DNA of 64,000 nucleotides, taken from assembly GCF_041248615.1 (NCBI RefSeq), contig NZ_CP158426.1. The stretch is one strand, 5' to 3'. The first letter of the stretch is position 1; each line of letters opens with the position of its first letter. Of the stretch, positions 11,606 to 51,742 are shown piece by piece. The DNA is from Escherichia coli (GTDB lineage Bacteria > Pseudomonadota > Gammaproteobacteria > Enterobacterales > Enterobacteriaceae). Below the pieces are notes generated by a model. The model saw nothing but the letters and a program-made list of their open reading frames with translations, was not told the origin of the DNA and ran no database searches. The position numbers and the translations under genes were made by a program.

Positions 11606-11914
11606 TCAAGCGGCAATAGCGAAATTCAGAATACGTGTAATCTCATTCAAATGTCCCGGATATGCTTCATGATTCTCAGCGTCAACATCTTCAATAAATA
11701 ATATCAGTTCAGTAATTAACGCATTAGCATCGTCATAATTTATCCCGGCTAACTCTGGCGAAGTTTCAGTACCATAGTTAATCGTCAGGTTGTTCATAAC
11801 TGTGAGGATATGGATAAAATATTTATGACAAACATTACATGTGGTTTTATTACCCAAAGTATTATACAGCATATCAAGTAATGCCAGTATTCTACGGTTT
11901 TGCACATCGTTCAT
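11606..11914 (-). CDS. Hypothetical 102-aa protein (no signal peptide), second gene of the AT-rich islet
   Basis: ORF in AT-rich DNA, 10 bp downstream of the lipoprotein gene on the same strand; contains a Cys-x2-Cys-His motif (CNVCH); no family recognised. Confidence 0.6.
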   Translation of the reverse strand: MNDVQNRRILALLDMLYNTLGNKTTCNVCHKYFIHILTVMNNLTINYGTETSPELAGINYDDANALITELILFIEDVDAENHEAYPGHLNEITRILNFAIAA

Positions 11915-11924
11915 AAAAAGCCTC

Positions 11925-12926
11925 CTATAACATTATTCCGCTGGCAATAAGTAATTTTGCCAGCCCCTCAGACGCCTTTAACCCACTAATGACCTGTGCG
12001 CGTAATATTTCATTTAATCTTTTTTGTTCAGCTGCCGTGCGTGTTTTATTAACGTATAAGCTTTTTAGATAATCACCCTTATCTATAAAGGCATTTAAAG
12101 CCTCAATCGCAGGCATGGCAGGTGCCGATGCCTGTAGTCTGGTTTCATTCACATTGATTACTGAACTTAGAAACTCCTTCCTGTTTTTCAGAGTGTTAAA
12201 CTCTGTATTCTTAGAGTTTTTAGATGCTGTATTATAATAAAACATATTATCATGCACATTCGCAAAGGTATAATTTTCAATCTTATTGCTTTTTGTATAA
12301 ATATCATTGCGCAAAACCGCCATGTTCTTTATAAGTCTTACCCAGTTTTCATCTGCCGTTTTGCCTATTTTTCCAGAATTGACTTTAATTATATATAACT
12401 CATTGAAATAATTTACCAAATCTTTAACCGCTGCTGCAGATTGAACTAAATCTTTGCTATGTGAAACACCAAGTAGTGTTTGTGCGTTGTTTGCGTGATC
12501 CAGAGCCTGTTTAAGTAATGCCACTTGCTGACTTTCCGTAGTTGCCATATCCTTTGTCAGAAGTTCCACATAAGCGCTCATGCTATTAATGACTTCCATT
12601 GAAGCCAGTAATTTTTCTTTCTCGAAAGGGACTAATTGTACTTGTTTTGTATTTGGCCCTGAACGCTGGCATAATTTTCCGCCATTCCCATCACCGCCTA
12701 TATCAATGGTATAATCAGGTCGCAGAGCACAATCCGGATTAGTCGCGTAGAAATTAACAAGGAAGTTTTCACGAGAAGCATAGTATTGTTTAAAGAAACT
12801 TGCATTCGCCGCTACTGCTTTGTTACCCGCAGTAATAACAGTTTCAGCTTGTTCGTTTTTCAATGCTTCAGTTGCACAACCTGAAAGCATTAACAGCGAT
12901 AGAAATATTCCACTATATCTAATCAT
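11925..12926 (-). CDS. Hypothetical 333-aa predicted lipoprotein, first gene of the AT-rich islet
   Basis: N-terminus MIRYSGIFLSLLMLSGC has a hydrophobic core and an LSGC lipobox (signal peptidase II type); the rest is Asn/Lys-rich with no recognisable catalytic motif; codon usage is AT-biased. Confidence 0.7.
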   Translation of the reverse strand: MIRYSGIFLSLLMLSGCATEALKNEQAETVITAGNKAVAANASFFKQYYASRENFLVNFYATNPDCALRPDYTIDIGGDGNGGKLCQRSGPNTKQVQLVPFEKEKLLASMEVINSMSAYVELLTKDMATTESQQVALLKQALDHANNAQTLLGVSHSKDLVQSAAAVKDLVNYFNELYIIKVNSGKIGKTADENWVRLIKNMAVLRNDIYTKSNKIENYTFANVHDNMFYYNTASKNSKNTEFNTLKNRKEFLSSVINVNETRLQASAPAMPAIEALNAFIDKGDYLKSLYVNKTRTAAEQKRLNEILRAQVISGLKASEGLAKLLIASGIML

Positions 12927-38010: not shown

Positions 38011-39642
38011 TTAGTGCTTCACAATGTACATATTCCGGGTGTAGGTATTATCCAGCGGATCTTTGCCGGTATAGCCACCAACCCACGGTTTCACCAGACG
38101 CGCATTCACGTAGTAATAAACAGGAACAATGGCCGAATCCTTATCCAGCTGTTGTTCTGCTTTAGTGTACAGAGCTGTGCGCTGCGCCTCGTCAGTCGCT
38201 TTCAGCGTTTCCGCCATAATGCTGTCAAAGGCCGGGCTCTTATAATGCGCGGTATTCATCGAGCTGTTCGACAGCATGGTGTTCAGGAAGGAAGTTGGTT
38301 CGTTGTAGTCTGCACACCAGCCTGCACGGGCCACATCAAAAGTGCCCTGGTGACGGGTGTCGAGGAATGTTTTCCACTCCTGGTTAACCAGTTTGACGTT
38401 TACACCAATGTTTTTCTTCCACAATGAAGAGGCAGCAATCGCCAGCTTTTTATGCAGATCGGAGGTGTTATACAACAGGTTGATGGTTAACGGTTTGTCT
38501 GCGGTATAACCCGCTTCAGCCAGCAGTTTTTTCGCTTCTTCGTTACGTTTTTCCTGGCTCCAGCCAAACCATTCCGGCTGAGTCAATTTTGCGCCATCAG
38601 TATACGGTGGAGTGTAACCATAGGCGGGCATGTCGCCCTGCGCTTTCACTTTATTAACAATGATATCGCGGTCCATACCCAGTTTCAGTGCGGTACGCAC
38701 ACGTACATCGTTAAATGGCGGTTTCTGGTTGTTAATTTCGTAATAATAAGTGCACAGGTATGGATCAACGTGAACTTCGTCCGGGATCTCTTTTTTCAGC
38801 TTCTGGAACAATTCGATCGGCATGTTGTTATAAGTCATGTCGATTTCACCACTACGGTAGCGATTGACATCGGTAACTTCAGAAGCAATAGGCAAATAGG
38901 TTACCTGGTTAATAACGGTTTTCGCGTTGTTCCAGTAGGTCGGGCTGCGTTCAAGAACGATTCGTTCGTTTACGACCCAATCTTTTAAGGTATAGGCACC
39001 GTTGGTGACGATATTACCAGGCTGGGTCCATTTTTCGCCGAATTTCTCGATAGCGGCTTTTGGCACCGGTGAAGTTGATGGGTGAACAAGTAATTTATAG
39101 AAGTACGGAACAGGTTCACTTAAGGTGACTTCTAATGTGTGATCATCAATAGCTTTCACGCCGAGATCGGTAATCGGTTTTTTCCCTTCAAGAATTTCAT
39201 CAATACCGGCGATATGCCCATATTGCAGATAACTGGCATACGGAGAAGCGGTGTTCGGATCAACAGAACGTTGCCAGCTATACACAAAGTCTTGGGCTGT
39301 GACTGGCGTGCCATCAGACCATTTCGCATCTTTACGCAAATGGAAGGTCCAGACTTTCGCGTCTTTATTATCCCAGGATTCAGCGACGCCAGGTGCCGGA
39401 TGGCCGTCAAGATCGCTGACCAGTAAGCCTTCAAACAGGTCTCGGCTGATATTAGACTCCGGAACACCTTCAATTTTGTGCGGATCTAATGACTGAACTT
39501 CTGAACCATTGTTACGTACCAGCGTTTGTTTTTCCGCCAGTGTGACGCCTGCGGGTACATCAGCTGCCAGCGCGACATTCCCTGCCATAAGCGCAGCCAG
39601 AACGCCAGCTGCTACTAAACTTCTCTTGGTGATGTTGGTCAT
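38011..39642 (-). CDS. oppA: Periplasmic oligopeptide-binding protein OppA
   Basis: 543-aa product starting MTNITKRSLVAAGVLAALMAGNVALA (signal peptide) with strong GAGGGAG Shine-Dalgarno; track ORF is extended 24 codons upstream. Confidence 0.96.
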   Translation of the reverse strand: MTNITKRSLVAAGVLAALMAGNVALAADVPAGVTLAEKQTLVRNNGSEVQSLDPHKIEGVPESNISRDLFEGLLVSDLDGHPAPGVAESWDNKDAKVWTFHLRKDAKWSDGTPVTAQDFVYSWQRSVDPNTASPYASYLQYGHIAGIDEILEGKKPITDLGVKAIDDHTLEVTLSEPVPYFYKLLVHPSTSPVPKAAIEKFGEKWTQPGNIVTNGAYTLKDWVVNERIVLERSPTYWNNAKTVINQVTYLPIASEVTDVNRYRSGEIDMTYNNMPIELFQKLKKEIPDEVHVDPYLCTYYYEINNQKPPFNDVRVRTALKLGMDRDIIVNKVKAQGDMPAYGYTPPYTDGAKLTQPEWFGWSQEKRNEEAKKLLAEAGYTADKPLTINLLYNTSDLHKKLAIAASSLWKKNIGVNVKLVNQEWKTFLDTRHQGTFDVARAGWCADYNEPTSFLNTMLSNSSMNTAHYKSPAFDSIMAETLKATDEAQRTALYTKAEQQLDKDSAIVPVYYYVNARLVKPWVGGYTGKDPLDNTYTRNMYIVKH

Positions 39643-40379
39643 TGTTTTTTGGACTCCCTCATTATAATTACTGGTATTAACCAGCATGTGTAATCCCGGA
39701 TTGGGACCCTGCACAGGCTCGGAGACTTTCTGCTGTCAGGTTACTTTATCGTTACGTATTACTATCACCGACTTTATTTATTCTGGTGATTCAGACGATC
39801 ACCTTATGTCGATTCGTACTGTGTCTCCCCTGTCGAGACACATTATTCTTTCGCGACGCTCTTTAATTGTTAATTATTCTCATTACCAATAAAGAATCGT
39901 CTGGCGGTTGCCCGAAAAGTACCAAATGCGGTTCTTACTCGCCAATACATTTTGCAAAATTGTTAAGCAATTCTCTTTTATTGACCGTATCAGAATCTAT
40001 AGCTTGCATCCATGTCTTAACAAACATCTTTTAATTCAATTAAATAGAGATTGGTTAAGCATGTCTCTCTTTTCTGATTACAGTTCCAGTAGTGAAATGC
40101 ACAATAATTTAACAATTGATTATTATTTAGCACTTTCCTCTACCAAAGGCAGTGGAATTACTAATATCATTTCAATTATTCTTCAGCAAGCCCAGGATTA
40201 TGATGTGGCGAAAATAACATGATGGTGAGGAGAAGCAGTTAAGGAAATCCTTATAACCAACTGTAATTTGAGAAGAATATTTTCACCCATTCCTTTTGCT
40301 TTTGATAACTGCGCGGGAACAAAGTAAAAATAATGACGAAGTAAACGGAGCATGACAGCTCCGTTTCATTTGAAAGGAA

Positions 40380-41027
40380 TTAATTAAGCAGGCCGGGGAA
40401 AATCCCCTTAATACCAGTAACGATAAATTCAATCCCCAATGCCATCAGCAATAGCCCCATAATACGCGTGATCACGTTGATGCCGGTTTGGCGTAAAACC
40501 CGTACCAGCCACGGTGCCATGCGGAACAATCCCCAGCAACATAAAGCGAACAATGCAATAGCCACAAAGAAACCAAACAGATAGCTAATGCTGTGATAAC
40601 GCGTACCCCAGACGATGGTAGAACTGATCGCCCCTGGCCCCGCCATCAACGGCAACGCCAGTGGCACCACACCAATGCTTTCACGTACCGCGGTTTCTGA
40701 TTTTTCTTGCTTGTTCTGTTTATCCTCGCCAAGCTTGCCGCTGATCATCGACATCGCTATCGTCACCACCAGGATGCCCCCGGCGATACGGAACGAATCA
40801 ATTGATATACCAAAAAGTTGCAGAATCGTGTCGCCGAGAAAAAGCGAGATCCACAAGATAATGGCCACAGACAGGTTGGCTGTAAGGTTAGTTTTGTTTC
40901 GCGCTGCCGCTGTCTGATAACTGGTCATGCTGATAAAGACGGGAATAATCCCTACCGGGTTGACCAGCGCAAATAACCCGATGAAAAATTTGAAGTAAAC
41001 GGGAAAATCAAAAAGGGTCTGAATCAC
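40380..41027 (-). CDS. ychE: MarC-family inner membrane protein YchE
   Basis: 215-aa multi-TM ORF MIQTLFDFPVYFKFFIGLFALVNPVG... Confidence 0.9.
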   Translation of the reverse strand: MIQTLFDFPVYFKFFIGLFALVNPVGIIPVFISMTSYQTAAARNKTNLTANLSVAIILWISLFLGDTILQLFGISIDSFRIAGGILVVTIAMSMISGKLGEDKQNKQEKSETAVRESIGVVPLALPLMAGPGAISSTIVWGTRYHSISYLFGFFVAIALFALCCWGLFRMAPWLVRVLRQTGINVITRIMGLLLMALGIEFIVTGIKGIFPGLLN

Positions 41028-41503
41028 GGTTAGCTCCGAAGCAAAAGCCGGATAATGTTAGCCATAAATAAGGTTAAAAAGACGCGCTGACAATACGCCT
41101 TTTGACAGCATTTTTCACCTCCTAACTACTTAAAATTGCTATCATTCGTTATTGTTATCTGGTTGTGTAAAACATGATAATGTAGCCAACAAATCATACT
41201 ACAATTTATTAACTGTTAGCTATAATGGCGAAAAGCGATGCTGAAAGGTGTCAGCTTTGCAAAAATTTGATTTGGATCACGTAATCAGTACCCAGAAGTG
41301 AGTAATCTTGCTTACGCCACCTGGAAGTGACGCATTAGAGATAATAACTCTAATGTTTAAACTCTTTTAGTAAATCACAGTGAGTGTGAGCGCGAGTAAG
41401 CTTTTGATTTTCATCGGTTAAGCAAATCATCACCGCACTGACTATACTCTCGTATTCGAGCAGATGATTTACTAAAAAAGTTTAACATTATCAGGAGAGC
41501 ATT

Positions 41504-51003: not shown

Positions 51004-51088
<85 letters not shown>

Positions 51089-51122
51089 TCTCAAGCATTA
51101 CCTCAAAATTTGAATTACCCCT

Positions 51123-51207
<85 letters not shown>

Positions 51208-51742
51208 TCACTTTCAAAAGTCCCTGAACTCTCAAACGAATCCGTAATTAAATATTCTGCCCAAGCGGGGAAGGATGAGAAGCTTCGACCAAGGTTCGAC
51301 TTGAGCGCCAGCGAGAGAGCGTGGCCGCAGGCAACGACCCGAAGGGCGAAGCGCGCAGCGCTGAGTAATCCTTCCCCCACCACCATAACTTTCAAAAGCC
51401 CCGGAATTCTCAAACGAATCCGCAATCAAATATTCTGCCCATGCGGGGAAGGATGAGAAGCTTCAACCAAGGTTCGACTTGAGCGCCAGCGAGAGAGCGT
51501 TGCCGCAGGCAACGACCCGAAGGGCGAAGCGCGCAGCGCTGAGTAATCCTTCTCCCACCACCATCACTTTTCAAAAGTCCGTGAACTCTCAAACGAATCC
51601 GCAATTAAATATTCTGCCCATGCGGGGAAGGATGAGAAGCTTCGACCAAGGTGCGACTCGAGCGCCAGCGAGAAAGCGTTGCCGCAGGCAACGACCCGAA
51701 GGGTGAAGCGCGCAGCGCTGAGTAATCCTTCCCCCACCACCA
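51208..51742 (+). repeat. Three tandem 178-bp repeat units distal to tyrV (rtT / tpr region)
   Basis: Units at about 51208..51385, 51386..51563 and 51564..51742, each ending in the tRNA-Tyr 3' terminal sequence AATCCTTCCCCCACCACCA; contains a protamine-like basic ORF. Confidence 0.9.

Follow-up and report, generated by a model that had tools for sequence, protein, structure and literature searches.

The K-12 reference strain of E. coli carries an insertion sequence between ychE and oppA, and this raises the question of whether a spacer without that insertion marks a special background or is the usual form of the oppA control region. We examined this in a stretch of 64,000 nucleotides of E. 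coli DNA (the window). An earlier note, made from the letters of the window alone, had described about 740 bp of AT-rich DNA without a transposase between the two genes. The ychE open reading frame (ORF), stop codon included, ends at 40380 on the minus strand, and the spacer is thus exactly 737 bp long, on the strand that it shares with both ychE and oppA; adhE lies beyond ychE on the plus strand. The GC fraction of the spacer is 0.370, compared with 0.495 for the whole window. Equal AT-richness is found in just 1.2% of all 737-bp segments, and the spacer ranks second in the 64 kb, after 11690-12426 (GC 0.341). A small ORF of 17 aa that is annotated in RefSeq genomes, ychT, lies just upstream of ychE at 41058-41111 on the minus strand, with coordinates carried over from the identical strain KE55.

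Searches for mobile elements agreed with this description. The 16-bp terminal inverted repeats of IS5 (GGAAGGTGCGAAYAAG) had 0 matches anywhere in the window, even when up to 2 mismatches were allowed, and the IS5U copy of MG1655, used as a BLAST query against the whole 64-kb window, gave zero matches. No transposase was found when ORFs of the spacer were scanned with Pfam and NCBIfam, and nothing reached the cut-offs; a GatZ-like match for one of them (15.7 bits, under its cut-off of 26.7 bits) was rejected. The window has no duplicated CTAA flanking an insert, and a single CTAA is present at 40127-40130. A repeat search of the spacer returned no direct repeats and two short imperfect inverted pairs, which we take as chance. 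An inverted pair of 19 nt (17/19 complementary) connects 39662-39680, in the oppA ribosome-binding region, with 40408-40426, at the 3' end of ychE; these segments could pair only in a read-through transcript, and the match is probably due to chance. Rfam has no family that covers the oppA leader. At gathering scores, a scan of the whole window gave no match inside the spacer, and with a permissive E-value the spacer region gave RsaE, mir-399 and SCARNA7 at chance level, far under their gathering scores. Elsewhere in the window, at 51004-51742 on the plus strand, lies the usual tyrT-tyrV/rtT arrangement, with three tandem RtT repeats after two tRNA genes and with Rfam scores well above gathering.

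What, then, does the spacer contain? We are confident that it is native DNA without interruption, made up of the regulatory region of oppABCDF and its long 5' leader, and that the plus-strand ORF inside it is a chance frame. In K-12, oppA is transcribed from P1 (+1) and P2 (+246), with stronger expression from P1, and the leader is processed by RNase E at +341 (PMC9988348). The small RNA MicF pairs with +372..+392, more than 100 nt upstream of the oppA AUG, and activates translation, while GcvB targets the translation initiation region and Hfq binds just upstream of the Shine-Dalgarno sequence (PMC9988348). That paper also cites an earlier mapping of the K-12 oppA region by Igarashi and colleagues.

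K-12 positions were transferred to the window through the published primer sequences (PMC9988348). The T7-oppA primer EM4528, for which the RNA starts at +341, begins at 39813, which places P1 at 40153, P2 at 39908, the MicF site at 39782..39762 and the AUG at +512. In agreement with this, the primer for the P1-promoter fragment ends at 40154, the P2-only construct begins at 40151, and EM5064 and EM1320 flank 40153. The numbering by itself would also allow P1 to lie inside IS5 in strains that carry it; we rejected this, since the primers for the P1 fragment and those for the P2 construct match native sequence on the two sides of 40153. In this way we infer the start sites, the cleavage site and the sites of sRNA and protein binding in this strain from K-12 experiments (Table 1).

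Table 1. Features of the ychE-oppA interval and its flanks, with positions in the window.
Feature	Position	Strand	Basis or remark
ychE, MarC/NAAT family membrane protein, upstream neighbour	40380..41027	-	Pfam PF01914, E=1.6e-76; RefSeq annotation of KE55
ychE-oppA intergenic interval: oppABCDF regulatory region and 5' leader	39643..40379	-	737 bp, GC 0.37
Putative ychE intrinsic terminator: 9-bp GC-rich hairpin after the ychE stop, then U-rich	40343..40366	-	Fold -14.9 kcal/mol, z=-4.0
P1 promoter region, P1 -1..-66, conserved across genera	40154..40219	-	PMC9988348 primers and conservation
Predicted P1 transcription start (+1), by K-12 transfer	40153	-	Primer positions; 511-nt leader, AUG at +512
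Early-leader block, conserved, +17..+53	40101..40137	-	23-sequence Enterobacteriaceae alignment
Empty IS5 target site CTAA, P1 +24..+27	40127..40130	-	Alignment with MG1655; TTAG on the plus strand
Variable, very AT-rich leader segment, +54..+173	39981..40100	-	Poor conservation between genera
Conserved block upstream of P2 and predicted P2 start (39908, +246)	39908..39979	-	K-12 mapping and alignment
Candidate sigma-70-like site TTAACA-17-AAGAAT	39845..39873	-	Consensus scan; same hexamer pair in PMC3946193
8-bp leader hairpin, +312..+334, just upstream of the RNase E site	39820..39842	-	Terminator-like on the plus strand
Predicted RNase E processing site (+341), inside the conserved CGACATAAGG block	39813	-	PMC9988348 transfer and alignment
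Predicted MicF sRNA pairing site, +372..+392	39762..39782	-	Identical to K-12, strongly conserved
Translation initiation region; Shine-Dalgarno GAGGGAG at 39654-39660	39643..39700	-	Sequence, conservation; published GcvB/Hfq repression
oppA CDS, periplasmic oligopeptide-binding protein	38011..39642	-	ATG at 39642; ORF list and RefSeq annotation
Antisense ORF, 104 aa (98 aa from the ATG at 39926)	39908..40222	+	ORF list

The hexamers assigned to P1 are TTGCTG (40184-40189) and TATTAG (40161-40166), separated by 17 nt. A consensus promoter scan picked neither P1 nor P2 and gave 4 other, weak sites, barely more than the 2.4±1.6 of shuffled sequences; we did not rely on it. The hairpin that follows ychE is probably the intrinsic terminator of that gene, and the leader (541 nt folded) is more stable than its shuffles (z=-3.25). 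When the 5' end of MicF was paired with the leader, the best duplex fell at 39762-39782, with -20.3 kcal/mol against -14.2±2.1 for shuffled leaders. A MicF-complementary site about 120 nt upstream of the AUG is thus present, and it is conserved across genera.

Taken together, these features suggest how the region would work. Transcription of ychE would be ended by the hairpin, and the roughly 220 bp of AT-rich DNA that follow would bear the main promoter, P1, with its start at 40153, under Lrp repression and H-NS binding. P1 would give rise to the 511-nt leader, within which the second promoter, P2, would start at 39908. RNase E would cut this leader at 39813, MicF would bind at 39762-39782 and thereby activate translation, and GcvB together with Hfq would repress at the ribosome-binding region. 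MG1655 differs only by its IS5 copy at the CTAA of +24..+27, where the window retains the ancestral empty site, and the plus-strand ORF is very probably a chance open frame antisense to the leader.

The earlier note had suggested a region with several promoters that is bound by nucleoid proteins. In addition to P1 and P2 (PMC9988348), published K-12 data include two Lrp ChIP peaks at the oppA promoter, which are abolished by leucine (PMC10127797). In a genomic SELEX study the ychE>oppA spacer is entered with a flag for H-NS and with TTAACA-17-AAGAAT as an RpoD site (PMC3946193), and this hexamer pair maps to 39873..39845 on the minus strand of the window. By analogy with K-12, on whose published data it rests, the suggestion is likely to hold for this strain. 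The spacer is the oppA control region, already characterized in detail and here in its ordinary state, and nothing new is needed to account for it.

The plus-strand ORF lies opposite the P1 core and the leader's first 246 nt, in antisense orientation. In many RefSeq E. coli genomes, though not in KE55, PGAP annotates the frame at 39926-40222 as a hypothetical protein (for example WP_001211521.1 and WP_001211514.1). Could it be a genuine gene of recent origin, specific to Escherichia and encoded opposite the oppA leader? In favor of such a gene, besides the PGAP calls, the frame is open in most E. coli, and there are protein clusters with hundreds of members. However, the ORF has no Pfam or NCBIfam family match, and in a search of 5.8 billion proteins all relatives but one record, which is labelled Enterobacter hormaechei, came from Escherichia or Shigella; many of the relatives are truncated forms, such as those of 53 aa. 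The frame is disrupted by a frameshift and stops in E. albertii, by stops in the divergent E. coli E69, by two in-frame stops in a Dutch environmental E. coli, and by stops in every other genus aligned, with stops or a frameshift in 20 other Enterobacteriaceae. The only residues that appear conserved, at the N-terminus, overlie the conserved DNA block upstream of P2. Relative to MG1655, the ORF has 4 nonsynonymous and 2 synonymous changes, which are too few for a formal test. The consensus scan gave no plus-strand promoter-like site upstream of the ORF, and by eye neither start codon is preceded by an obvious Shine-Dalgarno sequence. Finally, the IS5 copy of MG1655 breaks the ORF without known consequence. 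We consider a real gene here very unlikely. As the earlier note had supposed, the ORF is very probably spurious, judging from its sequence and distribution, and the PGAP call would be an over-annotation.

Another reading would take the spacer for a decayed, horizontally acquired AT-rich island or mobile-element remnant instead of native regulatory DNA. The low GC fraction, the reported H-NS binding and the IS elements that are drawn to the spacer could each be read in favor of such an island. We used a degenerate pattern from a conserved OppA motif to collect 120 Enterobacterales loci. The order of ychE and oppA, with a spacer of about 600-870 bp, is retained in Escherichia, Salmonella, Citrobacter, Enterobacter, Klebsiella, Erwinia, Edwardsiella, Hafnia and Yersinia. 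An alignment of 23 Enterobacteriaceae sequences revealed conserved blocks at P1 -66..-1, at +17..+53, at +175..+243 upstream of P2, at the +341 site, at the MicF site and in the Shine-Dalgarno region. These blocks coincide with the mapped P1, early leader, pre-P2 region, RNase E, MicF and Shine-Dalgarno sites. The spacer also lacks repeats, terminal inverted repeats and transposase remnants in the searches described above. Because synteny and multiple blocks are conserved, a foreign or decayed element is ruled out for practical purposes, and we regard that origin as extremely improbable. In E. coli E69 (CP089930.1), OppA and YchE are 99% and 98% identical to those of the window, and the variable leader segment has only about 80% DNA identity, which suggests that its leader allele is divergent or that the site has undergone local recombination.

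We then compared the native region with MG1655. The earlier note had placed an IS5 copy between ychE and oppA in that strain. NC_000913.3 indeed has IS5U, with insH21, annotated between these genes at 1299499-1300693, and the alignment shows that it is flanked by a CTAA duplication; the MG1655 interval is not uninterrupted. When IS5 and one CTAA copy are removed, the alignment with the window is gap-free, with 11 SNPs over 737 bp (98.5% identity). The note's phrase that the oppA leader is intact in the window is literally true, since the K-12 insertion site lies at +24..+27 of the P1 transcript. The sequence of the window matches the urinary isolate KE55 with 100% identity.

The frequency of the two states answers the opening question. 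The interval is contiguous in 5334 of 5426 complete E. coli genomes (~98%). The MG1655-type junction is limited to 55 genomes, all of them MG1655 derivatives or DH1; according to one paper, K-12 MG1655 is the sole carrier of IS5U (PMC5379014). These data indicate that the uninterrupted spacer is the species norm and that the IS5 copy of MG1655 is an oddity of a laboratory lineage. The insertion is not even K-12-wide, as the K-12 strains C600, J53, ER1709 and an MG1655 stock are without interruption. The point that the earlier note missed is that the uninterrupted state is not a special background but the norm. That the lineage of the window once had IS5 and lost it by precise excision is exceedingly unlikely, even though papers on MG1655 derivatives report clean 1,199-bp "deletions" of insH21 when these are compared with the reference (PMC12003319, PMC10044804). 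The empty site is a single CTAA without a scar, the insertion is missing from every other genus that we examined and from ~98% of E. coli genomes, and the window is not K-12, with its 11 SNPs and its identity to KE55.

In other genomes IS elements have entered the P1 core repeatedly. At least five independent insertions fall within 42 bp, at positions corresponding to 40127-40168 of the window (P1 -15..+27). MG1655 and DH1 have IS5 with its transposase in the oppA direction. At the same CTAA, other K-12 sublines (HB101, NBRC 3301, a "K-12" assembly and a "W3110" assembly) have IS5 in reversed orientation, and one wild isolate, from raw milk, has ISKpn26 (40127-40130). The reference W3110 and its derivatives (9 genomes) have IS2 at 40161-40168, or P1 -8..-15, in agreement with the literature (PMC2072959). 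EC_T6 and ij001 have ISKpn26 at the plus-strand CTAA of 40161-40164, in the P1 -10 region. These five events, identified among the matches listed, account for 71 of the 89 interrupted genomes. The segment around the oppA P1 start is possibly a convergent hot spot for IS insertion, a reading that we put forward tentatively and lean somewhat against. Besides target-site preference, the clustering may be the result of selection for insertions that free oppA from its main, Lrp-controlled promoter, and laboratory storage or growth on peptide-rich media may be settings for such selection. The clustering is the only item here that might repay a small follow-up.

P1 itself also differs between the window and K-12. 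Position 40161 (P1 -8) is G in the window, giving TATTAG, and T in K-12, giving TATTAT, which is closer to the -10 consensus. Of 5421 records, 4818 (about 89%) have exactly the 61-mer that the window has around P1, and G is also found in other genera. The K-12 T allele is therefore derived. With G at P1 -8, the strength of P1 or its exact start could differ from K-12, and K-12 data may overstate the typical strength of this promoter. The MG1655 reference is atypical at this locus, with IS5 27 nt into the main oppA transcript, and W3110 is atypical too, with IS2 within the P1 -10 region. What is measured on regulation in particular K-12 stocks may thus not carry over directly to natural E. coli.

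Compared with known systems, the window is closest to the K-12 region in which P1 and P2 were mapped (Carrier, Lalaouna & Masse 2023, PMC9988348). This is the same locus, without indels and with the 11 SNPs noted above. The two sequences agree fully in the MicF site, in the RNase E site block and in the Shine-Dalgarno region, and the window has G rather than T at P1 -8 and T rather than C at P2 -7. The MG1655 reference allele has the same flanks and CTAA target as the window but a 1195-bp IS5 that splits P1 from oppA at +27, where the window has the empty site. In the W3110 reference allele, IS2 lies inside the P1 core at -8..-15 of the same locus, which is uninterrupted in the window. Salmonella provides a further comparison. 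OppX, described by Vogel's group as cited in PMC9988348, is a MicF sponge from the oppA 5' UTR. Its leader is homologous to that of the window, and the MicF-complementary site is conserved in S. arizonae and S. diarizonae in our alignment. Unlike OppX, no stable leader fragment was detected in E. coli, where MicF instead activates oppA translation (PMC9988348).
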